DNA from: Porphyromonas pasteri
GTDB lineage: Bacteria; Bacteroidota; Bacteroidia; Bacteroidales; Porphyromonadaceae
Direction: 5' to 3'
NCBI RefSeq assembly: GCF_014647755.1
Contig: NZ_BMPU01000001.1
Coordinates: 850,382-914,381, forward strand
Length of the DNA: 64,000 nt
Under the pieces are notes generated by a model. It had not been told where the DNA came from. It saw nothing but the letters and a program-made list of their open reading frames with translations, and ran no database searches. Positions 228-63,846 of the stretch are shown piece after piece. The position numbers and the translations under genes are program-made. How positions within the stretch are numbered: the first letter of the stretch is position 1; every line of letters begins with the position of its first letter.

Positions 228-1109
228 ATGATACGTTTGCTTCTCCGCACCCTATTCCTCACGATTGGGATGGGGTGCTTGAGCCTTCCCGCCATAGGTC
301 AAAAGCCCAAGGTCTTCCCGGACTACACCTATGTATATGAGCCGAGTGACTCCCTGCAGATGACCATATTCGACTACGCACAGTATCGGGCCTACTATGA
401 GAAGCAGTACCGAGACGACCCATCTACCCCCTCAGCTTATCACTGGATGCAGGTTCTGCAGATAGGCAGGAACTACCAAGCCTTCCTCGACTATGGCGAG
501 CTACGTAGTGACTCGATATGGAATGCGTCGGTGAAGGCGAGGAAGAAATACGGGGAATTTGAGGCGGAGGATAAGGCTGCCTCAAGAGCTGCCTTATCTC
601 ATCTGAAGCTTATCTTCGACCGCTCCAAGGGGATGATCAATGCCCACGAGAAGATCTTCATCAACAAGTACCACTACACCGAGCCCATCCCCCAGCTCCA
701 GTGGACGATGGTGCGGGGCGATAGTACGGTCTTAGGCTACCCATGCCACAAGGCCACGACGCACTTCCGTGGACGAGACTACATCGCTTGGTACACCGAG
801 GAGATCCCCTTCCCCTATGGGCCCTTTAAGTTCGGAGGTCTCCCTGGCCTCATCACCTGCATCTACGACACCCAGCGCGAGCATATCTATACGCTTGTAG
901 GCTTTGAGAAAGCTCCGTCAGAGGACTACATCTACGAGGAAGCGCGACGTATGTGGTGGTTCGAGACCAAGCGGGAAGTGGTGGCGAAGCTCCAGAGGAA
1001 CTACCACGAGCAGCCCGACCTCTTCACCTCCGACATCGTCGTCCGTGACCCCAAGAACAAGCCCGTCAAGCATCATAGTAAGCCCTACAACCCGATCGAA
1101 TTAGAATAA
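228..1109 (+). CDS. GLPGLI family protein (secreted; tandem paralog)
   Basis: 293-aa ORF with N-terminal signal-like hydrophobic stretch. Contains the literal GLPGLITCIYD motif that names the Bacteroidetes GLPGLI family, and ends ...KPYNPIELE like its neighbours. Confidence 0.7.
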   Translation: MIRLLLRTLFLTIGMGCLSLPAIGQKPKVFPDYTYVYEPSDSLQMTIFDYAQYRAYYEKQYRDDPSTPSAYHWMQVLQIGRNYQAFLDYGELRSDSIWNASVKARKKYGEFEAEDKAASRAALSHLKLIFDRSKGMINAHEKIFINKYHYTEPIPQLQWTMVRGDSTVLGYPCHKATTHFRGRDYIAWYTEEIPFPYGPFKFGGLPGLITCIYDTQREHIYTLVGFEKAPSEDYIYEEARRMWWFETKREVVAKLQRNYHEQPDLFTSDIVVRDPKNKPVKHHSKPYNPIELE

Positions 1110-1137
1110 ATCGCCCGTCCACTCCTCCCCGCCCTCT

Positions 1138-2031
1138 ATGAAGACAGTAAGACTCCTCCGAGGCATCGCCTTATCCCTCAGTATGTGCATCCTCTCCGTA
1201 ATGAGCGCTGAGGCACAAGAGACCAACATGGCCCCATTCATCGAGAGCTTGATACGTGCCTTCAAAACAATGAAGGCTGACACCGTAGGCAAGGACGTCA
1301 TTGAGCCCAACCTCTATCGTGCATTCTATAAAGCAGAGTACCATCCTGTCGCGAAAAGCATGGCGCCAGCCTATGAATGGACGCAAGTATTGCAAATCGG
1401 TGAAACGGCCCAGCGCTATATAGACCATGGGACCTTGCTGGCTGACTCCATATTTGACGATGGAGTCAAGACGGGTAAGACCCCTGAAGAGTTCGTCCCA
1501 GGATACTATAAGGCAGGCAAGAGCTCCGTCATGGATAGCCATATACTTTTCCTTCAGAGAGAGGGGAAGATGGAGTACTTCGATCGGATCGTCACCGACC
1601 ACTTCACCTACATAGATAGTATCCCCCAGCAGCAGTGGGAGCTGGTCGCAGGAGATAGTATCATCGCTGGATACACCTGCCACCGCGCCCAGACCCGCTA
1701 CCGAGGGCGCGACTACACGGCTTGGTACACCGAGGAGATCCCGCTGAGCTATGGCCCGTATAAGTTCAGAGGACTCCCTGGACTCATCACCTGTATCTAT
1801 GATAAGGACCGTGACCACGTCTTCACCTTGCAGGGCTTCGAGCGCGCTCCGCGCGGAGAGGTCATTTACCGCAAGAAGAAGTCCTACTTCAAGACGACCA
1901 GGGAGCGCCTCCAGCAGGCCATCCGCAACTACATGACGAACCCCTCGGGCTACAGCACACCGAAGATCAACGTCCAGGGGAAGAAGACCGCCAAGCCTCC
2001 TAAGCCCTACAACCCGATTGAGCTGGAGTAA
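1138..2031 (+). CDS. GLPGLI family protein (tandem paralog)
   Basis: 297 aa with signal peptide. Has the GLPGLITCIYD motif, ...GYTCHRAQTRYRGRDYTAWYTEEIP... collinear with the preceding ORF, and the same KPYNPIELE C-terminus. Confidence 0.7.
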   Translation: MKTVRLLRGIALSLSMCILSVMSAEAQETNMAPFIESLIRAFKTMKADTVGKDVIEPNLYRAFYKAEYHPVAKSMAPAYEWTQVLQIGETAQRYIDHGTLLADSIFDDGVKTGKTPEEFVPGYYKAGKSSVMDSHILFLQREGKMEYFDRIVTDHFTYIDSIPQQQWELVAGDSIIAGYTCHRAQTRYRGRDYTAWYTEEIPLSYGPYKFRGLPGLITCIYDKDRDHVFTLQGFERAPRGEVIYRKKKSYFKTTRERLQQAIRNYMTNPSGYSTPKINVQGKKTAKPPKPYNPIELE

Positions 2032-2060: not shown

Positions 2061-4676
2061 ATGAGACACTACGACTACACGCCCCGACTCCTTTGGTGCC
2101 TCCTCATGCTGCTCCTCCTGCTCCCCATAGGGCAAGTGCATGGGCAGACGAGTGAGCGCCACGTGACCGCCCGTATCGTCAATGCTGAGACGGGTGCCCC
2201 CATCGTCGATGTCCTTTGCTCAGCATGGGACGGCGAACGGCACCGCACGGCCTTCACGCAGAGCGACGCCAAGGGCGAGGCACGCTTTCGCCTCACGCCC
2301 CAAGACCAGCTTCTCTCCTTCGTCCTCTTAGGCTATACGAAGCAAGAGCTACGCATCAGCGAGCTCTCGGGAGATAGCTTCACCGTGCGTCTCCAGCCCT
2401 CGACGACGCCGATACGTGAGGTACATATCAAGGCACGCCCCATCACCGTGCGGGGCGACACGCTCCGCTACCGCGTCAAGGCCTTTGCAGGCAAGCGAGA
2501 CCGCTACCTCGAGGATGTCATCAAGAAGCTCCCCGGGGTAGAGGTCAAGGAGAATGGACGGATAGAGTATCAGGGTAAGCCTATCAATAAGTTCTACATC
2601 GAGGGGCAAGATCCCTTGGGCAGCAACTACACGCAGGCCTCGCGCAACATCCCCATCAATGCCGTCGATCAGGTCGATGTCATCGAGCACAACCAGCACA
2701 AGCGCGTCCTACAGGGCCTCGTCTCCAGCGACCAGGCAGCGCTGAACATCCGTCTGAGCAAGGCCGCACGCTTCCGTCCCTTCGGGGAGGTCACAGCAGG
2801 GACGGGCCTGCCTGCACCGCTCTGGGAGGGAAAAGCCTTCCTCATGCAGGCCTCACCGACGAACCAACTCATCACCTCACTCAAGGGGAATAATACGGGG
2901 GTAGACCTCTCGTCAGACTTCGAGCAGCAGCACGACGCAGGGAGTGGCCTTCCACAGATCTCCCTTCCCTCGACCGCCCTACAGACCTCCTCCCCACAGC
3001 GCCCACCCCTCGACATCGGGCGCTACCTCGATGACAGAGGCTTCAACTGGGGCATCAATGACCTGCAGAAGCTCGGGGAGTACAGTAACCTCCGCATCAA
3101 CGTCTCGGGCTACCACGACCGCCGACGTCTCAGTTCCGAGAGCGAGACCCACTACCTCGGCACTACACCGCTCGACCTCTACGAGACATCACAGCTGACC
3201 CGAAGCCCCAACTACTACAATGCCGCCCTGCGCTACGAGCACAATGCGCCCAAGCGCTATCTCGTAGGTGAGCTAAGCTTCGGAGGTAGGCGCTCCGACC
3301 AAGCTGAGGGCCTTCGCTCCAATCGCCGTGAGTACACCTTGGGACTACGGCAGGAGCCGCTTTGGCTCCAAGCGGCCCTGCAGACGACCCTCCGCTTAGG
3401 CGGTACGGTCCTCGACTTCGTCTCCTCCACACGTGGCTACACCGCAGGAGAGACGCTCCGTGGCGAGTGGAACGAGGCGGCACTCCCCACGCAGACGCTC
3501 TACGAAGAGCGACGCATCACCCAGCTTCACACGACGCATCAAGCCTCGACGAGCTTCCAGTTCTCCCGCACCACCGCACTTCACACGGGGCTGGCAGCCA
3601 CGGCCGACCTACGGAGCTTTGACACGCCCTACGCGAGCCTTGCCCGCTCCTGCAGCTACCGTGACCTCTCTCTGGCGCTGGATGCGTCCTTCAGCTACCG
3701 CCCCGAGGGCTTCTATCTCTCGGTGGGTACCCCTCTTACCCTCGAGCGGGAGATGCTTCAGGTAGGTACGCGCCACGATGAGGCGACACGCCTACGTATC
3801 GCCCCCTTCTTCAGCATGAGGGCGAGCCTCGGGCAGCACGGAGAGCTATGGCTACGTGGGAGCTACTCCGAGCGCCCCGACCTCGACGGCTACTACAGCC
3901 CCAGCACCCAGAGACGAGGCTACCGCCTCTACTACCAGAGTCTCGAGCACCTCTACAGTCAGCAGACCCTCTCCAGCTCGCTCCGCCTCACCTATCGCAA
4001 CCCGCTGGAGCTCTTCTTCACCTACCTCCATCTGAGCTACAACTACACGACCCACGGCTACTACCGTGACTATACTTATAGTCTTGACCGCACGGTGAGC
4101 ATCCCCATCGACAGCACGCACCACCGCCAGACCTTCTCCGCAGCGGGCGTCGTCGACAAGTCCATCGCACCACTCGGGCTGAGCCTACATGCCGAGCTAC
4201 GATACAGCCACTCGAGCTACATCTCCTCACAAGCACATCGCGTCTATCAGATCCAGAGCGACCTCCTCGTGCCCAGCCTCACGATGACGTGCAACAAGCT
4301 CTCCCCGCTGGAACTGGCCTACACCTTCGAGCTCAGCAGTCTATGGATACATCACCCGCTGACGAAGCTACGCCCCGTCCTCTCCCTGCGTGAGAGCTTC
4401 GAGGCAGGCCTCCCCCTCGGTGATCGCTGGCTCCTCGGCCTGCAGGTCGTCCACTCAATGAATGAGGTCGCTCCAAGAGAGTACAAGCACACCCTCTTCG
4501 GTGACCTCGACGCTGCCTGGACCGTCAGCAAGCGTATCAAGCTCACCGCCCGCTTAGCGAACCTATGGGGTCAGACTGCCTACCAAGTGACCCGCCTCTC
4601 CGACACCGACATCTCGAGCTTCGCCGTACCGCTCCGCCCCCGCGAGCTCATCGTGACGGCTACGCTTCGCATCTAA
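2061..4676 (+). CDS. outer-membrane beta-barrel receptor-like protein with N-terminal carboxypeptidase-regulatory-like domain (TonB-dependent receptor-like)
   Basis: 871 aa. Signal peptide; VTARIVNAETGAPI... (CarbopepD_reg-like); plug-like segment ITVRGDTLRYRVKAFAGKRDRYLEDVIKKLPGVEV; long Tyr/Ser/Thr/Arg-rich beta-strand-like region. GLPGLI genes commonly sit beside such receptor-like OMPs. Confidence 0.6.
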   Translation: MRHYDYTPRLLWCLLMLLLLLPIGQVHGQTSERHVTARIVNAETGAPIVDVLCSAWDGERHRTAFTQSDAKGEARFRLTPQDQLLSFVLLGYTKQELRISELSGDSFTVRLQPSTTPIREVHIKARPITVRGDTLRYRVKAFAGKRDRYLEDVIKKLPGVEVKENGRIEYQGKPINKFYIEGQDPLGSNYTQASRNIPINAVDQVDVIEHNQHKRVLQGLVSSDQAALNIRLSKAARFRPFGEVTAGTGLPAPLWEGKAFLMQASPTNQLITSLKGNNTGVDLSSDFEQQHDAGSGLPQISLPSTALQTSSPQRPPLDIGRYLDDRGFNWGINDLQKLGEYSNLRINVSGYHDRRRLSSESETHYLGTTPLDLYETSQLTRSPNYYNAALRYEHNAPKRYLVGELSFGGRRSDQAEGLRSNRREYTLGLRQEPLWLQAALQTTLRLGGTVLDFVSSTRGYTAGETLRGEWNEAALPTQTLYEERRITQLHTTHQASTSFQFSRTTALHTGLAATADLRSFDTPYASLARSCSYRDLSLALDASFSYRPEGFYLSVGTPLTLEREMLQVGTRHDEATRLRIAPFFSMRASLGQHGELWLRGSYSERPDLDGYYSPSTQRRGYRLYYQSLEHLYSQQTLSSSLRLTYRNPLELFFTYLHLSYNYTTHGYYRDYTYSLDRTVSIPIDSTHHRQTFSAAGVVDKSIAPLGLSLHAELRYSHSSYISSQAHRVYQIQSDLLVPSLTMTCNKLSPLELAYTFELSSLWIHHPLTKLRPVLSLRESFEAGLPLGDRWLLGLQVVHSMNEVAPREYKHTLFGDLDAAWTVSKRIKLTARLANLWGQTAYQVTRLSDTDISSFAVPLRPRELIVTATLRI

Positions 4677-10467: not shown

Positions 10468-11538
10468 ATGCAAGCCTCCCCCTTCCGCCCACTCACCCTC
10501 CGTCATCCCTCTCCCTTCCCTTATATAGTCTTTGCTGGCCCTTGTAGTGCCGAGACCGAAGCACAGACCCTCGCGACAGCCGAGGCGCTGCGTGCCCGAG
10601 GTATCCGCCTCTTCCGTGCCAGCCTATGGAAGCCCCGCACACGCCCGGGCTCCTTCGAGGGGGTAGGTAGCGAAGGCCTGCCTTGGCTCCAGCGCGTCGA
10701 GCGTGAGCTGGGTATGCAGGTCGCCACCGAAGTGGCCTCCGCCAGCCATGTGGAGGAAGCACTCGCTGCTGGGCTGGATACCTTCTGGATCGGAGCGCGC
10801 ACGACGACAAGCCCGTTTGCTATGGCAGAGCTTGCCGAAGCCCTCAGCGGAGAGCGCGTCACCGTGCTGGTGAAGAACCCACTTAACCCCGATATCGAGC
10901 TGTGGGAAGGTGCTCTCCTACGCCTCTACCAAGCAGGCATCCCCCAGATAGGGGCTATACACCGCGGCTTCAGCACCTACGCCAAGGGACTCTATCGCAA
11001 TGCCCCCCTCTGGCAAATCCCCATTGAGCTACGCCGTCGCCATCCCGAGCTTACCATCCTCGTTGACCCCAGCCATATCGCTGGGCGCCGAGACCTCGTA
11101 CCGCTGGTCAGCCGTATGGGGCTGGAGATGAACTTCTCCGGCCTGATGGTCGAGACGCACCCCGAGCCCGAGAGTGCTTGGAGCGATGCCGCACAGCAGC
11201 TCACCCCTACCGACCTCATCACGCTCCTCTCCCAGCTGGATCTCCGCCCAGCCCACCCGACCGATGACCGCATGCTCAGCGGACTACGTGAGAAGATAGA
11301 CCACATCGATGCCGAACTCCTGCGCCTGCTGCGGGAGCGCATGATCGTCTCCGAAGAGATCGGGCATATCAAGGCCAGTGCCCACCTCCCTATCGTGCAG
11401 CCCGACCGCTACCGCAGTCTGCTGGAGGACCGCTTAGCGCAGGGCCGAGCCTTGGGACTGGATGAAGGCTTCCTCAGGGAGCTCTTCAGCTCGATCCACG
11501 AGGCCTCTGTACACACCCAGCACACCGACAGCAAGTGA
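10468..11538 (+). CDS. bifunctional 3-deoxy-7-phosphoheptulonate (DAHP) synthase / chorismate mutase
   Basis: KDO8P-synthase-like DAHP synthase region (FAGPCSAETEAQ..., WIGARTTTSP, LMVETHPEPESAWSDAAQQL). C-terminal chorismate-mutase-like helix (DHIDAELLRLLRERMIVSEEIGHIK). This fusion is typical of Bacteroidetes. Confidence 0.8.
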   Translation: MQASPFRPLTLRHPSPFPYIVFAGPCSAETEAQTLATAEALRARGIRLFRASLWKPRTRPGSFEGVGSEGLPWLQRVERELGMQVATEVASASHVEEALAAGLDTFWIGARTTTSPFAMAELAEALSGERVTVLVKNPLNPDIELWEGALLRLYQAGIPQIGAIHRGFSTYAKGLYRNAPLWQIPIELRRRHPELTILVDPSHIAGRRDLVPLVSRMGLEMNFSGLMVETHPEPESAWSDAAQQLTPTDLITLLSQLDLRPAHPTDDRMLSGLREKIDHIDAELLRLLRERMIVSEEIGHIKASAHLPIVQPDRYRSLLEDRLAQGRALGLDEGFLRELFSSIHEASVHTQHTDSK

Positions 11539-11948
11539 CCATGAAGCTCCATCGCTTTGTCTTGACCTTGGGCTCTAATAATGAGCCACAGAAACACCTC
11601 TCTCTGGCCCAAGCGGGGCTCCGCAGTCTCGAGCTGGAGCGCCTCACCTTCTCGCCAGCTCGCGAGTCTGCCCCCATCAGCTTCGGGCTCTCCGATGCGC
11701 TCTTCACCGACCAAGTAGCCGTAGGAGAGACAAGCATGGAGCTGGAGACCTTCGCCACACACCTCAAGGCTCTAGAGCGTCGTACAGGCCGTACCCCCGA
11801 GCAGCGCAAGAAGCACCCCGAAGCTATCCCCGTGGACATCGACCTCATCACCTGGGATCGGGAGATCCTCAAGCCACGGGACATCACTCGCCCCTACCTC
11901 ATCGAAGGTCTACGTGACCTCGGTGAACCACTCCTCCCCGAGGAATAA
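11535..11948 (+). CDS. 2-amino-4-hydroxy-6-hydroxymethyldihydropteridine pyrophosphokinase-like (FolK-like)
   Basis: 137 aa. LTLGSNNEP... and DIDLITWD resemble the HPPK LGSN/IDLDIL motifs. The ATGA start overlaps the upstream stop, suggesting translational coupling. Confidence 0.5.
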   Translation: MTMKLHRFVLTLGSNNEPQKHLSLAQAGLRSLELERLTFSPARESAPISFGLSDALFTDQVAVGETSMELETFATHLKALERRTGRTPEQRKKHPEAIPVDIDLITWDREILKPRDITRPYLIEGLRDLGEPLLPEE

Positions 11949-12024
11949 CCCCACCGCTTTCACTCGAGACTTCGCAGAGTGCTCACAGCCCTCTGCCAGC
12001 TCGCCGTATCTTGAGGTAAAAGCA

Positions 12025-12125
12025 ACCAGTACTGGTCACCGAGCGAAGTAGTACTGGTCACCATTAGTTACCAGTACTGGTCCGAAGCGCGACCAGTACT
12101 GATCGGATCAGTGACCAGTACTGGT
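12025..12125. promoter_or_regulatory. array of five 22-bp-phased palindromic sites (consensus GTGACCAGTACTGGTCAC) upstream of the tandem OMP genes
   Basis: ACCAGTACTGGT or one-mismatch variants start at 12025, ~12047 (left half degenerate), 12070, 12092 and 12114. Flanking GTGACC/GGTCACC extend the dyad. Confidence 0.7.
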
Positions 12126-12252
12126 TCATTTTCCCCTCCCCGCAATGCTCTTTCCCCCTACGACTTACGCCACAGCAGCACACCAACAGAAAAATTCCCT
12201 GAATTCACTAATTTAGCGGTACGATACGACACGATCTATACCTCTATCCATT

Positions 12253-13044
12253 ATGATCAAGAGACTTACTCCTCTGCTCTTTGCTCTCGGCACGCTACCC
12301 GTGCTGGCGCAGCAGACACCTAAGACAGACCCCACACAGGTCTATTCGCTCCTTGATGGGAAGACCATCATCAAGACCAATCCCTTCAGCGACATCTTCG
12401 GGAACCTCAACCTCAAGGTCGAGCGCATCCTGACCGATGGGCTTAGCGCACAGCTATCCATCTTCACCTCTCCTAAGGCCAATCAAGGGCGACAGTTCGG
12501 AGCCTTCAACGACATCACTTCGGTGACGAGTAGTATAGCCCTCTACTCCTTCCAGCCCAAGTATGTCGCCGTCGTGCCGCAAGTACGATGGTATCTCAAT
12601 GATGGCTTGGGCTATGGCTTCTACATGCAGGCGTATTATCACTACCAGCACACTCAGTTTACCAACCAAGAGATCAGCTCGCACCGCACTCTAATTGGCA
12701 GTAATACACCTGAATTTACTCTGGTATATGATGGCCAAGCTACGATGCATGGCTTCGGCTTTGGCGTCGGGGCACAGTGGCTCTTTGGCCGGAGAAAGAA
12801 TGTCGTCTTAGACTGGTACATCGCTGGGATCGGCCGTGGCTTCGTCCGAGGCAAGCTCACGGGGAGCTATACCCCAGGCATCGACCAGCAGAGCTTCACA
12901 GAGCGTATCCGCGAAGAGCTCCCTAACGAAGGAGAGGGCACTGAGTTCTCCTTTGATGCCACACAGCCGAAGGTCACGGTATCGAAGATCAAGTACCAGT
13001 CCTATATCCTTGATATGGGGCTCTCCATCGGCTTCCGTTTCTAA
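12253..13044 (+). CDS. small outer-membrane beta-barrel protein (tandem paralog 1)
   Basis: 263 aa. Signal peptide (LGTLPVLAQQ); alternating amphipathic pattern; C-terminal ...GLSIGFRF ending in Phe, typical of OM beta-barrels. Confidence 0.6.
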   Translation: MIKRLTPLLFALGTLPVLAQQTPKTDPTQVYSLLDGKTIIKTNPFSDIFGNLNLKVERILTDGLSAQLSIFTSPKANQGRQFGAFNDITSVTSSIALYSFQPKYVAVVPQVRWYLNDGLGYGFYMQAYYHYQHTQFTNQEISSHRTLIGSNTPEFTLVYDGQATMHGFGFGVGAQWLFGRRKNVVLDWYIAGIGRGFVRGKLTGSYTPGIDQQSFTERIREELPNEGEGTEFSFDATQPKVTVSKIKYQSYILDMGLSIGFRF

Positions 13045-13094: not shown

Positions 13095-13889
13095 ATGCGA
13101 AAGATATTTACCATCCTTATGCTTGGCCTCGGCACACTCCCCGTGCTGGCACAAGAAGCACCCAAGCCCGACCCTACCCAGCTCTACTCGCTCCTTGATG
13201 GGAGGACCATCGTCAAGACCGATCCCTTGAGCGTGGTCGTTGGGAAGCTCAACCTTCAGGTCGAGCGCCTCCTCGCCCATGGAGTCAGTGCTCAGCTCGG
13301 TCTCTACTTCACCCCTCAGGGAGATGAAGGGACGCAGTCTGGAGCCTTCCACTACCGTAGCTATGCTCTCAGCAACTCCATCGTGTTCTCTCCCGAGCAG
13401 CCGAAGCATATAGCCTTCTCGCCCCAACTAAGATGGTATCTCAATGGAGGCTTAGGACACGGCTTCTACATACAGGGCTACTACAGATTCCAGCATAGCG
13501 ACTTCACCCGCCAGCATATATATGCCCCACACAAGGTGGTAGACGACAAGATGCAGCATATCAGCGTTGACTACGACGGTCAGGCCACGACACACAGCTA
13601 CGGCCTCAGCATCGGGGCACAATGGCTCTTCGGACGACGGAAGAACATCGTCTTAGACTGGCACATCCTCGGTGTAGGACGTGGCTTCACACGCGGGAGT
13701 CTTACAGGCACCTATACTCCTGCGGTTAGCCACGCAGAGGTCGAAAAGGCTCTTCGTCAAGATATCCCCAGAGATATGACGGATGCTGTGTTTACCTTCG
13801 ATGCCACGCAGCCCCAAGTCAAGGTCTCAAAGATCAAGCAGGCATCTGACATCTTCGATATGGGCGTATCCATTGGCTTCCGCTTCTAA
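13095..13889 (+). CDS. small outer-membrane beta-barrel protein (tandem paralog 2)
   Basis: 264 aa, collinear with the preceding ORF: same signal peptide, PDPTQLYSLLDGRTIVKTDP, and ...GVSIGFRF C-terminus. Confidence 0.6.
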   Translation: MRKIFTILMLGLGTLPVLAQEAPKPDPTQLYSLLDGRTIVKTDPLSVVVGKLNLQVERLLAHGVSAQLGLYFTPQGDEGTQSGAFHYRSYALSNSIVFSPEQPKHIAFSPQLRWYLNGGLGHGFYIQGYYRFQHSDFTRQHIYAPHKVVDDKMQHISVDYDGQATTHSYGLSIGAQWLFGRRKNIVLDWHILGVGRGFTRGSLTGTYTPAVSHAEVEKALRQDIPRDMTDAVFTFDATQPQVKVSKIKQASDIFDMGVSIGFRF

Positions 13890-13953
13890 GGCGGACGGGA
13901 GGGATGCTGCACACCTCTTCGTGTAAAGCCCTCCCCATTCTCTCCATCATAGC

Positions 13954-13999
13954 AAAGGCTACATCCGAAGTCAGACTTCGGGTGTAGCCTTTGTTTTGC
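13954..13999 (+). terminator. rho-independent terminator after the OMP pair
   Basis: AAAGGCTACATCCGAAGTC-aga-CTTCGGGTGTAGCCTTT followed by GTTTTG. Confidence 0.7.
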
Positions 14000-14435
14000 T
14001 CCTAAGCGGAGTATCTTATTCGGAAGGGATGAAGAGCACCCCCGAGCGAGGCAGTGCAAACCAATAGTGGTATGGGGCATGAACGAATAGTGGTCTGAGT
14101 GCAAACAACTACTCATTCACACCCCATACCAATAGTCCTTTGCACTTCATCGCCTTCTATAGAGAAGAGGAAGCACTCAGGGAAGCCCCCTCTTCCCTGC
14201 AGAAGACGGAGCTACGGAAGGCCAGCATCTCGAAGTTTTCTCTATCGTGGTAGGCAGGGGTAGTAATAGACGTCGGAGAAATTTGCAGCACACACTACGC
14301 GGGAAGGAGCATAGCGGGTAAAAAGCGTATCTTTGCAGGGTAACTTGGGTGGAGTACTTATCAGCTCGTCCCTACCCCCGCAAGGCAAGGGGTGTGTGGC
14401 CATAGCTGGAGTACGCTTCATCCGATATATAATAG

Positions 14436-20099: not shown

Positions 20100-20591
20100 C
20101 TATACTCCGGCCGACTGAGTGAGAGTCTCCAAGCGTGAGATCAGATGATCGAGTTGCTCACGGAGTGCCGATAGTTCGCCCTCGGCACAGCCTGCATCTC
20201 GCAGCTTGGAGGAGAAGAGCGAGGGGATATCCTCAGCCTCCTCGCGCAAGGCCTTCGCCTGAGGTGTGAGACAAAGGATCACCTGCCGGCTATCGACCGT
20301 ACCACGCATACGTGTGACGAAGCCTGCCGCCTCGAGGCGCTTCAGCAGAGGCGTGAGCGTATTCGTATTCAGCCCCAGACGATCTACGATGTGACTGAGG
20401 GGCACCCCGTCCTGCTCCCACAGGACGAGCAAGACCAGATACTGCGGATAGGTCAGCCCCAGACGGTCAAGATGAGGCTGGTAGAGGCGTGTGATCAGCC
20501 GGACGACCGTATAGAAGCGGAAGCACAGCTGATCCTCCAGAAGGAGTGAAGGTGAGGACATACGATGTATATATCTTCGAAGAACGCGCAC
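20100..20591 (-). CDS. MarR family transcriptional regulator (OhrR-like)
   Basis: 163 aa. Winged-helix MarR pattern (LTYPQYLVLLVLWE...; DSRQVILCLTPQAKALREE). Cotranscribed with ohr. Confidence 0.8.
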   Translation of the reverse strand: MRVLRRYIHRMSSPSLLLEDQLCFRFYTVVRLITRLYQPHLDRLGLTYPQYLVLLVLWEQDGVPLSHIVDRLGLNTNTLTPLLKRLEAAGFVTRMRGTVDSRQVILCLTPQAKALREEAEDIPSLFSSKLRDAGCAEGELSALREQLDHLISRLETLTQSAGV

Positions 20592-21944: not shown

Positions 21945-22040
21945 GCTTATCTACGTAGGTAGATTTATCATCCACGCACGTAAACTTTAAGATCCATATG
22001 CGTAGATTTTAGATCCAGGCACGTAGACAGAAGTAATGCT
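21945..22040. repeat. degenerate copy (a) of the ACGT-palindrome repeat family (same orientation as copies b and f)
   Basis: ...ATCTACGTAGGTAGATTT...CACGCACGTAAAC...ATGCGTAGATTTTAGATCCAGGCACGTAGACAG aligns with 28021-28105 and 59120-59205, with many substitutions. Confidence 0.5.
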
Positions 22041-22505
22041 ATACTCGTTCGTGGCTCTACCACTACGCCGTGGAAGCTTTTCCTTCGGCTGCGTGGAACT
22101 TTCCCTGTATAGGAATGCCCTCGCAAGTCAATGAAGACACAAGGGACTCCCGCCCCAATGACGGTAGCTCTCCCCAGCTAATGAGACTCCGACGACGGCA
22201 CAGGCGAAGGCACTCCATCCCCCCCTTCTCGGAGGTATGACACCAAAGCTCCAAGAGGAGACACAGCACAATTCCGGCAATTCTTCACCGAGTCGTTTGG
22301 CACATCTTGGATTTTCAATCTACACTATCACACAGCACATTAAGCATCAAAAAGGAAAATCCTGAGTGGTAGTCACGGCAAATCTTCCACGCTTCATCAA
22401 GGGGTAGAAGGTTCATTTATAAGAGCTGAGCATCGCCCATCCTCGGAGGGAGGAGCTGGTAGGCAAGGGAAAAGACAAGAGAAAAGCGGGGGAAAGCAAT
22501 GAATA

Positions 22506-22607: not shown

Positions 22608-23006
22608 ATGATGACTCTTGAGATAAAGAGTAAGGTATCTAAGCAGGGCCTTCGCGCCGGCAAGACGCTTTACTACGCCTACCCCACGAAGCGTGAGAAG
22701 CTAAGCATCGACCAAGTGATGGAGCAGATCAGCAGTATTTGCTCGCTCTCCCGCATCGATGTGGAGTCCGCTCTGCGTGCCTTCGCCGAGGTCGTATGTA
22801 CGAGCTTCGAGCAAGGCGTCGGCGTCGACCTCGGAGAGATGGGTACACTGATGCCCTTCGTCCAAGGCAAGCTGATGAACACCCCCGAGGAGGTCACCGA
22901 AGCGACCCTCCAGCCTGCGAAGATCATCATGCACCCGAAGAAGAATATCCGCCAAGCGCTCGGCCGCATCACCTGCCAGATCAAGCGCGAGCCCTCCCAA
23001 GACTAA
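22608..23006 (+). CDS. HU-family-like DNA-binding protein (Bacteroidetes type)
   Basis: 132 aa, basic, resembling the Bacteroidales HU-like family. Assignment moderate. Confidence 0.5.
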   Translation: MMTLEIKSKVSKQGLRAGKTLYYAYPTKREKLSIDQVMEQISSICSLSRIDVESALRAFAEVVCTSFEQGVGVDLGEMGTLMPFVQGKLMNTPEEVTEATLQPAKIIMHPKKNIRQALGRITCQIKREPSQD

Positions 23007-27874: not shown

Positions 27875-27982
27875 CACCACCAAGATAAGACTATTTGCGC
27901 TCAAGCTTCATACGGTAGCGCAATTTCGGAGTCCGTCCCTTCGGAGAGAAAAGCTGAAAGTAGTAGTCAAATGATTTCCTCT

Positions 27983-28215
27983 GAGTACGAATAAAAGTTG
28001 CTGACGAATAGCTGATGAGTTTGATCTACGTGCGTGGCTCTAAAATCTACGTGCGTAGTCTTTGGGATTTACGTACATAGTCTTTAAGACTACGTGCGTA
28101 GACAAAGGAAAAGCACTATGGGAAGCTCCCTTTTCCTTCACGAGAATGTAGATTTTGCTCCGCTGGGCAAGAAAAAACCCCGTGATAGGGTTCCCACCAC
28201 CCTCCCACAGCATTA
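27983..28215. repeat. copy (b) of the ACGT-palindrome repeat family, inverted orientation, upstream of the ABC ATPase gene
   Basis: GAGTACGAATAAAAGTTG...ATCTACGTGCGTGGCTCTAAAATCTACGTGCGTAGTCTTTGGGATTTACGTACATAGTCTTTAAGACTACGTGCGTAGAC... is the reverse complement of copies c, d and e with substitutions. Confidence 0.8.
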
Positions 28216-33194: not shown

Positions 33195-33670
33195 CGAAGG
33201 AGGTGATGTGAACTAATATAGGTCGGCGCGCTGACCTATATTGAGATTGTTGCACAGAGTCCTGTTTCCTATTTAGAGTGCTAAGGCATCGTGCGCCCAG
33301 CTCCCCGATACACCTCTCCGAAGTGACCGAGCAAGCCCTACGCCTTATCACATATATTCCTCTTATCCTGCGAAGGAAAAAGTGTCCTTCTCATGAAGGA
33401 AAGAGCGCCTTCACATAGTGGTTTTTCAGTATCTATGCACGTAGTCTTAAAGACTAGGTACGTAAATCCAAATGTCCACGTACGTAGATATTAGAGCCAC
33501 GTACGTAGCCCAAACTTATTTGCCACTCGTCCACAACTTTTATCCCTACGCGGAGCAACAGTCTCATATTGGTCGAGAAGCGAAGCTATATAGGTCGATA
33601 TATGTGACCTATATTGGTTCGAGCAGTGACCTATATAGGTTCGTCCGGTGACCTATATAGGTCGCTATCC
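33195..33670. repeat. copy (c) of the ACGT-palindrome repeat family (forward orientation) with 5 x 22-bp-phased TGACC-TATATA-GGTCA sites at its right end
   Basis: Left boundary hairpin AATATAGGTC-ggcgcgc-TGACCTATATT (33215-33242). Core 33263-33560 is collinear with 40801-41095. Phased sites start at ~33561, 33582, 33604, 33626 and 33648. Confidence 0.8.
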
Positions 33671-40662: not shown

Positions 40663-40702
40663 TCTCTCGCGCTACCCAAGAGAGTAGCCAACGAGAGCAA
40701 AA

Positions 40703-40751
40703 GGTCACGGCCTCCATCCCTACCGAGTAGAGATGGAGGCCGTGACCTTTT
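40703..40751. repeat. 45-bp palindromic hairpin element, copy 1 (also serves as cbiG terminator)
   Basis: GGTCACGGCCTCCATCCCTAC-cgag-TAGAGATGGAGGCCGTGACC, preceded by CAAAA and followed by TTTTAT. Near-identical to 44071-44117. Confidence 0.75.
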
Positions 40752-40800
40752 ATATGGGGAGCGTATATCTGCTTAGATGAGGCTGTAGCCGAGAGTCCAG

Positions 40801-41215
40801 CCCTCTATTTAGAGTGCTAAGGCATCGTGCGCCCAGCTCCCCGATATACCTCTCCGAAGTGATACGCAAGCCCTTCGCCTTATCGCGAGTATTCCTCTTA
40901 TCCAGCGAAGGGAAAAGCATTGTTCTCGTGAAGAAAAAAGTGCCTTCACATAGTGGTTTTCTCTATCTACGTACGTAGTCTTAAAGACCAGGCACGTCAA
41001 TCTAAATATCCACGTACGTAGATATTAGAGCCACGTACGTAGCCCAAACTTATCTGCCACTCGTCCACAACTTTTATCCCTACGCGGAGCAACAACCTAA
41101 TATAGATCACTTCACAAAGCTATATAGGAAGCAGTCCAAAGCCATATAGCTTTGGACTGCTTCCTATATAGTTCTACCTACGCACCCATATACCTATATA
41201 TGGGATCATTGCGCA
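40801..41215. repeat. copy (d) of the ACGT-palindrome repeat family (forward) with 5 phased TATATA-core sites including a 23-bp perfect hairpin
   Basis: Core has CTACGTACGTAG at 40967-40978, CCACGTACGTAG at 41010-41021 and 41031-41042, plus a half-site remnant at ~40989. Right end has phased sites starting ~41096, 41118, 41140, 41162 and 41184; sites 2 and 4 form CTATATAGGAAGCAGTCCAAAGC-catata-GCTTTGGACTGCTTCCTATATAG. Confidence 0.8.
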
Positions 41216-41225
41216 AGGCTATCTC

Positions 41226-43803
41226 TTAGATATCGAAGGTCGCCGAGAGATAGAGGCGACGAGGACGGTTAGGCCCATAGATGTAGTCCGAAGCTCGTCC
41301 AGGACCCATATCGGTATCCTTCTGATAAGCATTGAGGAAGTTCTGTACCCCCGCATCCAGCGTGAGCTTCACCAGCGAAGTGAGGCTGATGGCATAGCTC
41401 ACACGGAAGTCAAGATCAACAAAGGGCTTTGCCTTGTATAGGTAAGCTGACCCTGCATTCTGCCCACGATAGTGCGTCCCATCACGCACGACATCAAAGT
41501 GCCCCAGAGCATTCAGCTCATTAGCTTGGAGGTTGAGATCCCCCACTCCTTCGTAGGCGGCATGAGGTACCTTCATCGAGCCCGTATAGGTGCCCGAGAG
41601 GACGAAGCTCAGAGCAGAGGTAGGACGAAGCGTAGCGGTCAGATAGCCGTAGAGATTAGGGGTACGCTCGTAGTCTCGTGTGGTGACCTTGGCCTGCGTA
41701 GGATTGTCTTCATCAGCATCGAAGAGCACCTTGTCCTGCCCGTAGAGGCTGCGCTGTAGGGTCACGCCGCCCTGCAGGTCGAAGAGGCGCTGGTACGCCA
41801 GACGAGCCTCGAAGCTCAGGCCATAGACCTTGCTCATCCCGTCACGAGCGTTGATGATCGTGATGACCTTGCGCCCCGTCTTGGGGTCGAGGACACCATC
41901 CTCGTTGTCTGGAGTGAACTTGTCTCGGATCCAGGTAGCGAAGCCTTCACCCATGAGGTTGAGCTGCCAGCCCTTCCCCAGCGTGGTGTACCAGTCGAAG
42001 GAGGCGCTGAGACTGCGAGAGCGCTCTTCCTTCAGATCCTTCGCTAGGACACGCTCCTTGGGCTCACCACCCGCCAGCGTGACATGCATCTCCTCATCGA
42101 AGAACTGAGGAGCACGGAAGCCTTCGCTGTAAGAGAGGCGCAGACTGAGGTCCTTGGTAGGATTGAAGCGTACGTTTGCTCTGGGGCTGAAGATGAGGAG
42201 CGGGTCAATGCTCTTCTGCCCCCCTTGCGTCAGACGGACATAGTCGAAGCGCCCACCGAGGAGGAAGTTCCACCGGTCGGTCGAATACTCCAGCTGGTCG
42301 TACTGAGACCAAGTCGTTGTGACCTGATCGATCCCATGAGCACGGTAGCCACTCTTATCGTTGAGCGTCGAGTAAGCACCCTCAGCACCTACCGTAAGAG
42401 TAAGTGACTTGGGGAACTTGTGGACATAGGTACCGCCCCCCTGGAAGTCAAAGCCCTTGGTCTCGCCATAGGCTGTCAGTGCCTTGAGAGCATCGTCATA
42501 GGCCTTCTGATACACCTCGGCCTGCTTCTTCTCCTCGTCAGTGCCTTGGGCATTACCACGAGGGAGGTTGATCAGGGGCTTCAGAAGCTCATCGGCGTAG
42601 TTGCCCCCACCATAGTAGCTCTTACGCAGGACCTTCTGCCCCGAGGCATAGAGACTGAAGCTGTCGTTGCCCTCAGCAGTCGTCTGGTCGAAGCGTAGGC
42701 TTCCCCCATCGACGAAGTGCTGGAGGTACTCAGCGATACGAGCTTGGAAGGGTGCTTCGCTCAGGCGATCACCACCACGACGATACTCGTGCATGGAGCG
42801 GTATTCAGCCGTCAGCTTGCCATAGATGCCCGTCTTGTAGTAGGCACGGAAGCCGAGGGCTCTATTCTTCAGTTCGGGAATATCGGTGAAGTCATCCCCA
42901 TCGACATCCACGATCCCTCGAGAGGAATGCTGACCGAAGATCATCGCAGCAGCACGGCGGTCTTCGCTGACCAGAGAACCGTTGAACGAGGTGGTAGGCA
43001 TCAGCGAAGTGTATGCCCCCTTGTTCTGCTGGAAGGAAGTATAGCTCTGGCGAAGGCTAGCGGTATTGCGCAGAGGCTCTCTTGTGATCACATTGATCAC
43101 CCCACCGACGGCATTAGCACCGAAGAGGGCTGATCCACCCCCACGTACCACCTCGACACGCTCGATCATAGAGGCAGGGATCTGCTCCAGACCATAAACG
43201 CCAGCAAGCGAGCTGAAGATAGGACGGCTATCGATGAGGATCTGAGAATAAGCCCCTTCAAGCCCGTTGATACGCACTTGGTTGAAGCCACAGTTCTGAC
43301 AGTTGTCCTCGATGCGAAGACCTGGCTGGAAGCGGAGACCTTGGCTGAGGTTCTCCGAATTGGTCTTCTTGAAGATCTCCTGCGAGAGGACGGTGACAAG
43401 GCTCGGTGCATGACGGCGAAGCGTCTCCTGACGATTAGCCGAGACGACGACCCCATCGAGGTCAATACTCTGCTGCTGGAGGTAGAGATCGAGGTGGCGA
43501 CTATTCCCAGCTTCGATACCGACACGGCTCTCCTCCACCCCATAGCCCACGAGACGTGCTTGGATGGTATAAGAGCCCGGAGCAAGGCCTTGGATGGAGA
43601 ATGCTCCATGGACATCGGTCGTCGTACCAATAGTCGTCCCCTTGATGAGAACCTGGACATTAGGAAGGGCTTCGTGAGTCGAAGCATCGACGACGGTACC
43701 CACGATACTCCCCGTCGTCGCTGAGTGCTGTGCCTGAGCTTGCCCAAGGGCCACAAGGACAAGGCTCAGCAGTAGTGCCATACGGCAAATAATACTCTTC
43801 ATG
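41226..43803 (-). CDS. TonB-dependent receptor with N-terminal carboxypeptidase-regulatory-like domain
   Basis: Signal peptide (MKSIICRMALLLSLVLVALGQAQA) and CarbopepD_reg-like domain (TGSIVGTVVDASTHEALPNVQV). Plug region (VSANRQETL...NLSQGL, DSRPIFSSL...GLEQIPASMIERVEVVRGGGSALFGANAVGGVINVITR), then a 22-strand-type barrel. Start taken at the internal Met. Confidence 0.85.
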
Positions 43804-44070
43804 TATACTATAAGTTGATTATACGAATCGGACCAACAACAGAGCAAGACGTAGTCCTCCCAGCGCAACTCACCCGTCAAAGGATCCAGGGAAAGGGCTA
43901 CATGTCGAGCGGAGAGAGAGGCTTTCTCGAGAGCGATTCCTCGGTAGAGCGAGGGATCTTGTTCTGTTTAGGTCTACACAAAGTTAAACACAGAAAGCAC
44001 AACTATGGATCACCTACCCACAAAATACCTATTGCTGGGGATAGACTGATACCCGCTAATAAGCTAATAA

Positions 44071-44117
44071 ATAGGTCACGGCCTCCATCTCTACTCGGTA
44101 GAGATGGAGGCCGTGAC
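44071..44117. repeat. 45-bp palindromic hairpin element, copy 2
   Basis: GGTCACGGCCTCCATCTCTAC-tcg-GTAGAGATGGAGGCCGTGACC, a perfect 21-bp stem. Lies between the minus-strand small-membrane-protein gene end and the TonB receptor start. Confidence 0.75.
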
Positions 44118-44140
44118 CTATTATTATTAAGGAATAGTCC

Positions 44141-45512: not shown

Positions 45513-46901
45513 TTAGTCTTCGCCCTCGACGACCTTGTGGAAGTCCGTGCCTTCCTTGAGCTTACCATCATTAGTAAGCACCCAGGCCTCAGAGGAGCTC
45601 GCCACGACATAGCCACCAGAGAAGCGAGTAGTCTTCAGCGTATAAGCGAAGTGATCTTCTTCATCAGAATAGCTCCACAGCACCTTGCCCGTCTGGGCAT
45701 CCAGGCATCGGAGGATCCTTGTCGCATCAGAGGCTGCCGTGGGCTTGAAAGAAATGAGGACTCGGTCAGCTGCCTCATGAAGGACCGCAGGAGAGAAGTA
45801 GTAAGCCCCTGGGGTAAAGTCTTCGTAGCCCTGCAGGCGTGAGCGCTCTGCTGTATAAGGCAAGACGAAGACCTTGCGATAGGGCGAGGCATCAGTGAAG
45901 ATCCCAGAGCCACCATAGTCTTTCTGCCAGCCGAAGTCTGGCTCATCGTACGGATAACCGACCTGCTCAAGCGTACGGTAGCGCACCAGCTGGATCTGCT
46001 GATCCTCATAGTCAGTAGTCTGACGTGAGAAGGTAAAGTGCGTGCCGACCTTAGGAGCGGGGAGCTTCTCCAGATAGCCCTTATAGGCCATCTTCTCGCC
46101 ATAGAGCTTATTGGGGATAGGATAGTAGACAAAGCTCTTACCCAGATTTGTCATGACCTTCAGGCCATCACCATTGTCCCTATAGACGAACTCTACCGTC
46201 GCAAAGCCCTCGCTGAACTCAGCTACCTTATAGTCCTCGCCATGGATCTCCTTCATATCGAGCGTCGAGGGATCGATACGATAGAGGTGCTTCTTATTGA
46301 GGATAAGGTAAACTGACCCATCTCCGAACTGACGTAAGCCCGTCACATCGACGCTCCCCTTCAGATCAGGGAGCTGGATATCCTTGAGGACCTTCTTTGT
46401 CTCTCCATCATAGAGCCGCACAAAGCCTTGGGCATTCTTTGAGCTCGTATTCATCTGATAGGCAGAGCCACAGACCACCACGACGGGGCGCCCTGCTGCA
46501 CTGGCAAAGAGCTCGATGGGCTCCAAGTCATAGGACATACGCTCCTTCAGAGTACCGGTATAGCCGTAGCCTCCCTGTGAGGCCGCGATACGCTCGGCCA
46601 CACGGTCCATCGAGCGACTGGAGGTGAGATTACCGATGATGACCAGGAGGAAGAATGCAAACGATGCCCCTCCTGCGATGAGGAGGCTGCGCTTGGGGTG
46701 TGCTGAGAACTGCGACTGGATGAAGGAGAAGGGATTCGAGTTATCGGGTACCGTCTCATGCTTGTGATGGATGGTGATATCATCCGAGTCGAGGAAGAAC
46801 TCCGTCGAGCAGCTATCACAGCGGTAGTGATCCTCGCGGATCAGCGTGGCGCGCGTGCTACCGCACTGGGGGCATTTCAGAGCTTTGATGTGCTTGGGCA
46901 T
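45513..46901 (-). CDS. zinc-ribbon / single-TM / beta-propeller-like membrane protein, paralog A
   Basis: N-terminal MPKHIKALKCPQCGSTRATLIREDHYRCDSCSTEF (CxxC-N17-CxxC zinc ribbon), one TM (LLIAGGASFAFFLLVIIGNL), ~370-aa extracytoplasmic domain ending in a PQQ/BamB-like blade motif (RCLDAQTGKVLWSYS). Confidence 0.65.
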   Translation of the reverse strand: MPKHIKALKCPQCGSTRATLIREDHYRCDSCSTEFFLDSDDITIHHKHETVPDNSNPFSFIQSQFSAHPKRSLLIAGGASFAFFLLVIIGNLTSSRSMDRVAERIAASQGGYGYTGTLKERMSYDLEPIELFASAAGRPVVVVCGSAYQMNTSSKNAQGFVRLYDGETKKVLKDIQLPDLKGSVDVTGLRQFGDGSVYLILNKKHLYRIDPSTLDMKEIHGEDYKVAEFSEGFATVEFVYRDNGDGLKVMTNLGKSFVYYPIPNKLYGEKMAYKGYLEKLPAPKVGTHFTFSRQTTDYEDQQIQLVRYRTLEQVGYPYDEPDFGWQKDYGGSGIFTDASPYRKVFVLPYTAERSRLQGYEDFTPGAYYFSPAVLHEAADRVLISFKPTAASDATRILRCLDAQTGKVLWSYSDEEDHFAYTLKTTRFSGGYVVASSSEAWVLTNDGKLKEGTDFHKVVEGED

Positions 46902-47020
46902 ACTGGGTATGAGCTATGCGAAGAGCTATAAATATGTGTAAGTTACGAACGTGATAAAGTCCTGTATTCGTATGGGGCAAAGCCTCTACAAGGACAAATT
47001 TAAGTAAGAAATACGAGTAG

Positions 47021-48331: not shown

Positions 48332-48407
48332 CCTGTATATGAGCTATGCAAAGAGGTATGTTTAGGTGAGAGGGCACATACTATGCAGGGGGAGGCTGGA
48401 GTTCGTG

Positions 48408-49709: not shown

Positions 49710-49847
49710 CCGAACGATTAAGCTAAGTGGTGAGCTGTGTAAGGGGGTGCTACAGCCCTTACATAACAAGAGGATACACCAAGAGAGCCCGCCTCTATAT
49801 GGGCAGGCTCACTTGGTGCATACTATAGTGGGTGTGAAAATGCAGAG

Positions 49848-50687: not shown

Positions 50688-50995
50688 AACCTATATTGGT
50701 CAAGCAAACCCTTCTTATCGCGAGGATTCTTCTTATCCAGCGGAGGGAAAAGTGTCCTTCTCGTGAAGAAAAAAGCGCTTTCACGTAGTGGTTTTTCTCT
50801 GTCTATGCACGTAGTCTTAAAGACCAGGCACGCAAATCCAAATATCCACGTACGTAGATATTAGGACCACGTACGTAGCCCAAACTTATCTGCCACTCGT
50901 CCACAACTTTTTTATCCCGACGCGAAGCAACAACCTAATAGAGGTCACTTATCAATGCTATATAGCTTCGCCCGCTGACCCATATAGGTTCACAC
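50688..50995. repeat. copy (e) of the ACGT-palindrome repeat family (forward) with 3 phased TATATA-type sites
   Basis: Left: CGAACCTATATTGGTCAAG. Core: ...CTATGCACGTAGTCTTAAAGACCAGGCACGCAAATCCAAATATCCACGTACGTAGATATTAGGACCACGTACGTAGCCCAAACTTATCTGCCACTCGTCCACAACTTTTTTATCCC. Right sites start at ~50934, 50955 and 50976. Confidence 0.8.
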
Positions 50996-56178: not shown

Positions 56179-56224
56179 CCGCTACCATGAGAGGGATATG
56201 AAGAAGAAGCGCGCAATAGAAGCA

Positions 56225-58990: not shown

Positions 58991-59080
58991 CCTCTGCGAC
59001 CTCCCCCCACGCAGCTGTGCCCTACGGCATTTACTTCCTCGGAGGAAAAATCAAGGAATAGCAGTGGTATGACTTCTTAT

Positions 59081-63378: not shown

Positions 63379-63737
63379 ATATATATGTAGAGGAAAGCCT
63401 ATCCGCCCTTGAAGATAGGGCTCCCATAGGGGGAACCGAGCCTATCCGTATCCGCTCCACGGCTATCCTACGAGCTACAAAAACGAACCTATACAGGGGC
63501 GCCGCTCCGACCAGTATTGGTCACGATACGAAGCAATATAGGTTACTTTCCTCTCCTCGCAGGTATGCGTCTGCAGTGAGCTGGTGGGATATGCTCGTTC
63601 TTCCGCGAGCTAGTGGGTGCGAGTTGGTGGAGTACTGATGCGAGTGCCGTGCGGAGGCTATGCGCTGCCCTCACGGCGGTAGGCATATAAACGGCGATAG
63701 GGTGACGAAGCTTGCACTCCATCACCCTACCTCTTAA

Positions 63738-63846
<109 letters not shown>

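Follow-up and report, generated by a model that had tools for sequence, protein, structure and literature searches.

In Escherichia coli, BIME-2 clusters (BIME, bacterial interspersed mosaic element) bind gyrase and can act as topological insulators, and the insertion sequences IS1397 and ISKpn1 insert into the palindromic units of this bacterium. Cooperative operator or iteron arrays include lambda OR/OL, RK2 oriV with its five 17-bp iterons at 22-23 bp, and plasmid parC centromeres. In Porphyromonas gingivalis, BrickBuilt and the MITEs (miniature inverted-repeat transposable elements) MITEPgRS/MITE464 are found only in intergenic regions, with ~20 copies per genome, and BrickBuilt consists of 23-nt tandem repeats with partial dyad symmetry and IS5-type terminal repeats (PMC4596501, PMC2575886); the latter sequence, GAGACTGTTGCA, is also that of the ends of the IS5-family elements ISPg4 and MITEPgRS/MITE464 (PMC4596501 Table 2). 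Here we describe an array of five short, regularly spaced units at positions 12025-12125 of a 64,000-nucleotide stretch of Porphyromonas pasteri (contig NZ_BMPU01000001.1, positions 850,382 to 914,381; hereafter the window), located upstream of two paralogous genes for DUF3575 outer-membrane proteins (OMPs). Exact protein matches assign the window to this species. The array is not an operator specific to these OMP genes; it is one member of a dispersed intergenic family, and a literature search found no description of such arrays in Porphyromonas or P. pasteri. We give an even chance to the proposal that it is one copy of a module, dispersed among the intergenic regions of oral and related Porphyromonas, that serves as a protein docking platform and not as a gene-specific switch.

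When the sequence was read over 11700-12500, the array, with units in capitals, was aACCAGTACTGGTcaccgagcgaAGTAGTACTGGTcaccattagttACCAGTACTGGTccgaagcgcgACCAGTACTGATcggatcagtgACCAGTACTGGTtcattttcccctcccc, in which the units are spaced 22/23/22/22 bp apart; Tandem Repeats Finder also detects a 22-bp period at this position. An earlier note, made on this DNA from the sequence alone, had described five perfectly phased 22-bp copies, each exact or with one mismatch. Five cores do begin at 12025, 12047, 12070, 12092 and 12114, of which three are exact and that at 12092 has one mismatch, but one of the intervals is 23 bp and the core at 12047 has two mismatches. The flanking bases were also said to extend several sites into an 18-bp dyad; this dyad, GTGACCAGTACTGGTCAC, is complete in no copy, and the conserved entity is the 12-bp core with a purine (R) and a pyrimidine (Y) at the flanking positions. 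With up to one mismatch allowed, ACCAGTACTGGT has five matches in the 64 kb, four in the array and one at 63510, vs 0.14 expected, and none of 100 shuffles reaches five. The array starts 77 bp past the stop of the HPPK/folK gene (11535-11948) and ends 128 bp before the ATG of the first DUF3575 paralogue, in accordance with the ~130 bp and the folK-like neighbour given before, while genes for CTP synthase (pyrG) and YidC are found downstream of the DUF3575 pair.

The strict unit motif A[CG]C[AT][AGC]TA[TCG][AT]G[GC]T has 11 matches in the window (at 12025, 12070, 12114, 14060, 33584 to 33651, 50689, 63510 and 63532) vs 0.55 expected, and all 11 are intergenic. One genome of each prokaryotic species (185,579 species) was scanned for two units 22 bp apart, and at least 54 loci were found, at least 25 of them in two metagenome-assembled genomes (MAGs), Porphyromonadaceae CAURNJ01 (at least 16) and Porphyromonas CAKMOP01 (at least 9). 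By the same two-unit scan, the five-unit module was also found in several human-oral contigs (~50% GC) of a viral collection. A chaining script run on the scan loci and the window detected 31 arrays, all of which are intergenic. Exactly five units spanning 99-101 bp are found in 18 of the 31, so five is the canonical number and not a chance property of the 12025 locus; most calls of 6-8 units look like over-extension by relaxed scoring. In a more distant Porphyromonas-like species (L104-L108, ~2764-2846; L106, 5631-5689), the unit is 13 bp long (GACCTACNGTAGGTC, ACC-N7-GGT) and recurs with a 23-bp period, which identifies the 10-nt spacer as a kept feature; here too the array lies upstream of a DUF3575 homologue, with TTTTTACCCCC after the units.

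The unit can be modelled as (R)A[C/G]C-W-N-T-A-N-W-G[G/C]T(Y), i.e., ACC-W-N-TA-N-W-GGT with R/Y favoured outside. Among 300 half-sites from 30 arrays, the six positions are A (98%), C (79%) or G (18%), C (98%), A/T, A/G/C and T (99.7%), positions 1, 3 and 6 being at least 98% invariant. The spacers are 10 nt long, often with one 11-nt spacer between units 2 and 3, have a GC content of 68% and are nearly free of information in sequence except for their first and last base; a weak position-specific consensus is seen in the outer spacers, S1 (0.43) and S4 (0.50), vs 0.36, and none in the inner ones. With the arrays oriented according to their flanks, a G-rich sequence (e.g., GGAGGGTGGTGTGA) lies on the left and a C-rich one (TCACACCACCCTTC) on the right, the two being loose mutual inverted repeats. 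The arrays are of two classes, in which nearly all half-sites are either AGT/ACT (S type, like the 12025 array) or TAT/AAT (W type, like the array at 33562). The (G)GGAAAAGCA in the left flank of the 12025 array is common to S-type arrays elsewhere.

The cores of the array, and only these, appear to be under purifying selection. In an alignment of the region upstream of the OMP gene from 15 P. pasteri strains with an intact array, none of the 60 core positions is variable, compared with 7/41 positions in the spacers, 5/23 upstream and 29/127 downstream; overall, 41 of the 191 non-core positions vary (34/150 in the flanks), and cores differ from the rest with p = 5e-6. Fixation extends to the imperfect units 2 and 4, and the invariance of the cores therefore does not result from homogenisation among units. 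Between species, the array at 33562-33662 is orthologous to that at 4014-4113 of CAKMOP01 locus L006; the pair shares 52 of 60 core positions (87%) and 15 of 40 spacer positions (38%), and the coding DNA flanking the CAKMOP01 ortholog is ~85% identical. Among 29 arrays, spacer identity has a mean of 0.41 and a maximum of 0.78, the top pair coming from two different metagenome samples. Since no two of the 29 have similar spacers, there is no sign of recent copying of the whole module.

The array is dispensable at the OMP locus, because it has been disrupted in other strains by a MITE. A metagenome scan yielded 34 loci, and the upstream region was recovered in 31 strains: ~15 loci have an intact array, and in ~11 of the 31 strains it is disrupted by an insertion of ~350 nt or lacks most units. 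In the disrupted alleles, between one and three final units are left, together with the C-rich flank, the promoter-proximal sequence and an intact gene. The right flank TCATTTTCCCCTCCCC is kept in every strain with a recovered upstream region, including those with disrupted arrays. Units have similarly been lost at the DUF4836 locus in other P. pasteri strains: L110 is one 22-bp unit short, and in L111 a deletion that runs from within a unit (AGCTATATA) to the downstream GCGATATA has taken away four units and the C-rich flank; the gene is unchanged in both cases.

The inserted element is also the dispersed repeat of the window, at the ends of which the earlier note had found TATATA-centred relatives of the unit; these are present at 33562-33662, 50689, 50934-50992 and 41096-41190. 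The window contains 5-6 copies with 66-88% identity, and the terminal inverted repeats (TIRs) TGAGATTGTTGC/GCAACAGTCTC match the GAGACTGTTGCA ends of the IS5-family ISPg4 and MITEPgRS (PMC4596501). Copy 1 is flanked by an ATAT duplication (33238-33241 and 33566-33569), and its excision restores a perfect unit, ACCTATATTGGT. In the OMP array of five strains, the left MITE junction is ACCAGTAC/TGAGCCTGTTGCA, at the same position within the unit as for copy 1 (ACC....../TGAG..): in L091, L093 and L102 the MITE follows the ACCAGTAC of a unit whose preceding spacer matches that of unit 3, and in L081 and L085 the same junction occurs in a shortened array. The dispersed repeat is therefore an IS5-type MITE with unit centres as its target, and units are found at the ends of the repeat because the MITE inserts into arrays. 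TIRs, a short target-site duplication (TSD), multiple copies and insertion polymorphism, the MITE being present or absent at the OMP locus among P. pasteri strains, are all found for this 324-bp repeat. Its insertion into array units parallels that of IS1397 into E. coli palindromic units. The MITE also contains four CCACGTACGTAG-like palindromes of its own, in phase at a spacing of 21-22 bp.

Given the resemblance of the arrays to cooperative operator and iteron arrays, we propose that about five dimers of a sequence-specific DNA-binding protein may line up next to one another along a single helical face. Each monomer would recognise an ACCWNT half-site, with a flexible TA step in the middle. 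Over this TA step the triplets of the two half-sites are separated by 9 bp, a geometry that would be compatible with dimers touching two successive major grooves. The nucleoprotein block could have an architectural role across the genome, for instance as a transcriptional or topological insulator or a roadblock between genes, as has been proposed for the clusters of BIMEs and repetitive extragenic palindromes (REPs) in E. coli; control of the neighbouring OMP genes would be no part of it. A side effect would be that the TA-centred palindromes are the preferred target of an IS5-type MITE and a hotspot of unit loss and recombination.

Several observations weigh against this proposal. No binding protein was identified, and no DNA-binding gene recurs beside the arrays in the window and the loci examined; the insulator role has no direct support from this analysis, and natural strains can do without the array. 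S-type counts per array have a variance of 15.7 vs 2.3 when shuffled, a value that none of 5000 shuffles reaches, and the flanks tend to differ by class (AAAAGCA...TCATTTT in S, GGTGGTGTGA...TCACACCACC in W). A split of this kind is expected if the arrays descend from two master copies of a mobile element; under protein docking it would require either one tolerant protein or two paralogous ones. In intergenic regions of at least 150 bp, arrays are found in 20% of the convergent, 32% of the tandem and 44% of the divergent ones (p = 0.47, from a biased sample). The 12025 array can fold into a long hairpin (-59.8 kcal/mol; z = -7.3 as RNA and -7.8 as DNA), and positions 2 and 11 of the unit co-vary weakly (odds ratio 4, p = 0.005). 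The strong predicted fold is, however, expected, since repeated palindromes fold automatically, and the weak co-variation arises partly because the middle unit favours AGC...GCT. Only 74 of 150 units are complementary at positions 4 and 9 (W/W), which means that a unit does not have to be a palindrome, and complementarity within arrays, between units 1:5 and 2:4 or between spacers 1:4 and 2:3, is nowhere above the between-array baseline. A hairpin or cruciform as the selected feature was rejected, as these complementarity tests gave no signal beyond the weak co-variation of positions 2 and 11. The features of the units fit a dimer reading two half-sites better than a maintained helix.

The same hairpin would be central to an explanation at the RNA level, in which the array marks the 3' end of the upstream operon, as a terminator or an REP-like protection against exonucleases, or encodes a structured non-coding RNA. 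The array lies 77 nt past the folK stop with no other terminator detected; arrays in tandem contexts often lie 43-105 nt past the upstream stop codon; and the S type is flanked by short T-runs on both strands. Against this, the genes on either side diverge for 7 of 21 sampled arrays, which leaves no 3' end there, no helix shows a compensatory pattern, and W-type arrays are without T-tracts. Scans for sigma-70 promoters, which do not cover Bacteroidota promoters, and for intrinsic terminators gave no match. Rfam at the gathering threshold detected only RNase P RNA and 5S rRNA in the whole window and, at E values up to 10, only noise matches in 11900-12300. We consider an RNA-level function very improbable. 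The earlier reading, a cooperative operator for a dimeric protein or an iteron array, is partly retained, as dyad sites in helical phase, a fixed spacer length and invariant cores do fit cooperative binding by dimers; its gene-specific part, with the two DUF3575 genes as targets, is not. The position of the array, ~97-197 bp upstream of the inferred start site, would suit an operator, and relatives with 77% OMP identity, and even ~40% homologues, also have the array and the C-rich motif upstream. In the 77%-identity relative, however, only 38 of 60 core positions are identical and all five cores differ, which fits retention of a module and not of a conserved operator sequence. The absence of an adjacent regulator gene, reported earlier, is confirmed, the nearest DNA-binding gene being the MarR-family gene at 20100-20591. 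The genes facing the arrays in the MAG loci are unrelated (Pfam, 20 genes) and include those for DUF4254, acetyl-CoA hydrolase, acyl-CoA ligase, Kelch, DAP dehydrogenase and BspA-type LRR proteins, a TonB-dependent receptor, lipoamide dehydrogenase, CvpA, a SIS protein, gcvT, a P-type ATPase and a PLP enzyme, which speaks against a coherent regulon. Convergent intergenic regions contain arrays too, as does the DNA downstream of the 5S rRNA gene, and a promoter-side bias was not supported, there being no significant preference for any type of intergenic region. The module is confined neither to one regulon nor to the vicinity of one regulator gene, and it is not retained wherever the gene is retained: about one-third of the P. 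pasteri strains sampled have a MITE-disrupted array of 2-3 units with the gene and promoter region intact. A dispersed element without promoter bias is what the earlier note had named as contrary to its reading, and this is essentially what was found; an OMP-specific operator is therefore very improbable.

A selfish origin deserves more weight. The whole module could be a REP/REPIN-like or MITE-like element, mobilised, now or in the past, by a transposase (e.g., a RAYT-type HUH enzyme that acts on single-stranded hairpins) for which the units would be recognition sites, without a function for the host. Its high copy number, dispersal and strictly intergenic location would all be expected, as would the inverted G-rich/C-rich flanks, the S and W subfamilies with distinct flanks, the weak consensus of the outer spacers, the strong hairpin potential and the presence of modules inside an integrase-bearing mobile region. 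On the other hand, recently duplicated copies are absent among the 29 arrays, orthologous sites keep their arrays across species with conserved cores and scrambled spacers, and cores are invariant within the species while the flanks vary, an invariance that decaying copies would not show. Neither a TSD nor a presence/absence polymorphism of the whole module was seen, the units are often not self-complementary, and none of the loci examined showed a gene for a RAYT or other transposase. Selfish origin and docking platform are not exclusive, as domesticated repeats are common; as a complete explanation we regard selfish origin as unlikely, given that young copies are lacking and that the cores are under selection. 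A replication origin of iterons, or a partition centromere, left by an integrated plasmid or phage is effectively refuted by copy number and genomic context. Five repeats at 22-23 bp do resemble clusters such as RK2 oriV and R6K gamma, and some arrays lie in a region with integrase, Bro-N and topoisomerase genes, but the units are dyad-symmetric and not directional, there are several copies in the window and dozens in related genomes, and the OMP locus has housekeeping genes in conserved synteny and no rep or par gene, DnaA boxes or AT-rich unwinding region.

Compared with the described systems, the module lacks defining features of REP/BIME and of BrickBuilt/MITEPgRS, which are its closest known kinds. 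Like REPs and BIMEs, the arrays are high-copy and strictly extragenic (11/11 strict sites and 31/31 arrays; at least 16 and at least 9 loci in the two MAGs), consist of palindromic units in regularly spaced clusters with characteristic flanks, are dispensable at single loci and are insertion targets, here of an IS5-type MITE. Unlike them, the arrays have units of 12-16 bp instead of imperfect hairpins of 20-40 nt, and stem-loops of that size with compensatory changes are absent; the linkers keep their length but not their sequence, in contrast to those of BIMEs, which are conserved motifs; the number of units is fixed at five, and these are often not self-complementary; no GTAG/CGTC tag or RAYT gene was seen in the window or the loci examined; and the arrays are common in divergent, promoter-side regions. 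BrickBuilt belongs to the same genus and has the same TIRs as the MITE inserted into the arrays, and the start of its unit, GACCATAGTATCC, resembles the 13-bp variant GACCTACNGTAGGTC. Its unit, AGACCATAGTATCCTCTCATATG, is however repeated head to tail without a variable spacer, from 1 to 22.8 times and nearly identically (95% matches in BrickBuilt_5), between leader and tail segments that carry the TIRs, while the arrays have unrelated spacers, five units and no leader or tail, and contain no spacer-less 23-nt repeats. The period is similar and GACC is shared, yet the two are not the same element, and homology between them can be only a lead. The likeness to operator and iteron arrays lies in short, protein-sized sites in helical phase with spacers kept in length and free in sequence; those arrays, however, are single-copy beside the gene of their binder, whereas the module is multi-copy without a cognate gene nearby. 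Directional repeats, a rep gene, DnaA boxes, an AT-rich region and confinement to a single locus, which would characterise an iteron origin, are lacking. The five-unit module is not a MITE itself, as only loose inverted flanks and neither a TSD nor near-identical copies were seen, and its positions are conserved across species; nor is it a CRISPR, with repeats of 12 nt, spacers of 10 nt, a fixed number of five and many loci.

The docking-platform proposal has several implications. If the arrays are occupied in vivo, they would represent a new site-specific architectural system in Bacteroidota, a phylum in which nucleoid organisation and intergenic repeats have been little studied, and it would be directly testable, as the 101-bp fragment can be used as bait for the binding protein. 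The arrays account for the landing sites of an IS5-type MITE in P. pasteri and for structural polymorphism upstream of a surface-protein gene in a very common oral commensal, and they are a possible origin of the BrickBuilt/PgRS repeats of P. gingivalis. Annotators should not take such arrays for gene-specific operators. A bolder extension, which we put forward tentatively and think rather doubtful, is that the chromosomes of oral Porphyromonas might each carry ~100+ five-site arrays as a genome-wide system not described before, each array with a defined oligomer (about five dimers) of a sequence-specific DNA-binding protein, that act as insulators, domain boundaries or nucleoid anchors, BrickBuilt being their degenerate, expanded descendants. 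The copy number in it is an extrapolation from ~5 array loci in 64 kb, the loci listed by the species scan being from genomes other than that of P. pasteri, and, as part of the same doubtful extension, the binder could be two paralogues matching the S and W classes.

Features of the arrays, the associated MITE and the OMP genes in the P. pasteri window
Feature	Position	Strand	Description
Left flank of 12025 array	12015..12024	+	GGTAAAAGCA; partial inverted repeat of right flank
Unit 1	12025..12036	n/a	ACCAGTACTGGT; perfect 12-bp core
Unit 2	12047..12058	n/a	AGTAGTACTGGT; 2 mismatches, variant fixed in 15/15 strains
Unit 3	12070..12081	n/a	ACCAGTACTGGT; perfect core, preceded by the single 11-nt spacer of the array
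Unit 4	12092..12103	n/a	ACCAGTACTGAT; 1 mismatch, fixed in the population
Unit 5	12114..12125	n/a	ACCAGTACTGGT; perfect core
Right flank of 12025 array	12126..12141	+	TCATTTTCCCCTCCCC; C-rich
Candidate -7 promoter box of OMP gene	12209..12216	+	TAATTTAG; 1 mismatch to TAnnTTTG
Two DUF3575 outer-membrane paralogues	12253-13044, 13095-13889		
Degenerate two-unit remnant	14060..14094		ACCAATAGTGGT, ACGAATAGTGGT; 23-bp spacing, within a 410-bp segment
Partial MITE	21950-22050		
MITE copies	27941-28190, 59039-59280	-	
Second array, left part	33212..33241	n/a	Unit ACTAATATAGGT, then ACCTATAT cut by MITE
MITE copy 1	33242..33565	+	324 bp; TIRs TGAGATTGTTGC / GCAACAGTCTC
Second array, right part	33562..33662	n/a	W type, TATATA/TATATT centres, then CCCCCTCCTCC
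MITE copy 2	40778 to ~41099	+	Followed by unit-like CTATATAG sequences to 41190, forming a long hairpin
Third array	50689..50992		1 unit left and 3 right of 5'-truncated MITE (~50705-50937), then CCCTCCCC
MITE copy, 5'-truncated	~50705-50937		Splits third array
Three-unit array	63487..63543		ACCTATACAGGG, ACCAGTATTGGT, AGCAATATAGGT, then CTTTCCTCTCCTC

The sequence TAATTTAG is a candidate promoter box of the first OMP gene, given that the -7 box of Bacteroidota has the consensus TAnnTTTG. It reads TAAYTTAG in L001, L002 and nearly all recovered strains, and L086 has a 1-nt insertion. An exact look-up of the OMP protein gave no record. The 410-bp segment at 13899-14308, between the second OMP gene and pyrG, holds the terminator hairpin of the second OMP gene and two degenerate array units; it is absent in strain L075 and in the related species L103 and present in other strains. 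The three-unit array has a PD-(D/E)XK nuclease gene on one side and, on the other, the 5S rRNA gene with its 3' end towards the array. Among the arrays elsewhere, two IMG/VR contigs have modules beside integrase, Bro-N or topoisomerase genes, by which modules are seen to occur inside an integrative element too: on L057 (6047-6147) and L064 (8916-8994 and 10276-10398), an S-type array is located 240-290 bp downstream of a tyrosine integrase gene and a W-type array between Bro-N and topoisomerase genes, and L064 carries a four-unit version of the five-unit L057 array. An array of CAURNJ01 (L025, 3223-3323) is located between a P-type ATPase gene and gcvT; BrickBuilt_8 of P. gingivalis also adjoins gcvT, on the opposite side, which may be coincidence.

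Other features of the window include the MarR-family gene (20100-20591, minus strand) and a gene for a Bacteroidota HU-HIG histone-like protein (22608-23006, plus strand); both were considered as binders and set aside, as no evidence links either to the arrays. RNase P RNA (56218-56612, minus strand) and 5S rRNA (63737-63846, minus strand) are likewise not linked to the arrays by any evidence. Three tandem paralogues of 462, 436 and 453 aa are encoded at 45513-49769 (minus strand), with 65-83% nucleotide identity in blocks; Pfam gave no match for 45513-46901 and 47021-48331. Tandem Porph_ging paralogues (PF09697) with the common C-terminal ...KPYNPIELE are encoded at 228-2031 (plus strand) and by a partial open reading frame before 210. 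A 53-55-nt self-complementary hairpin, AAAAGGTCACGGCCTCCATC...GATGGAGGCCGTGACCTTTT, is present in two copies at 40699-40753 and 44070-44124, which are 89% identical as direct and 94% as inverted repeats and bracket a TonB-dependent receptor gene at 41226-43880.

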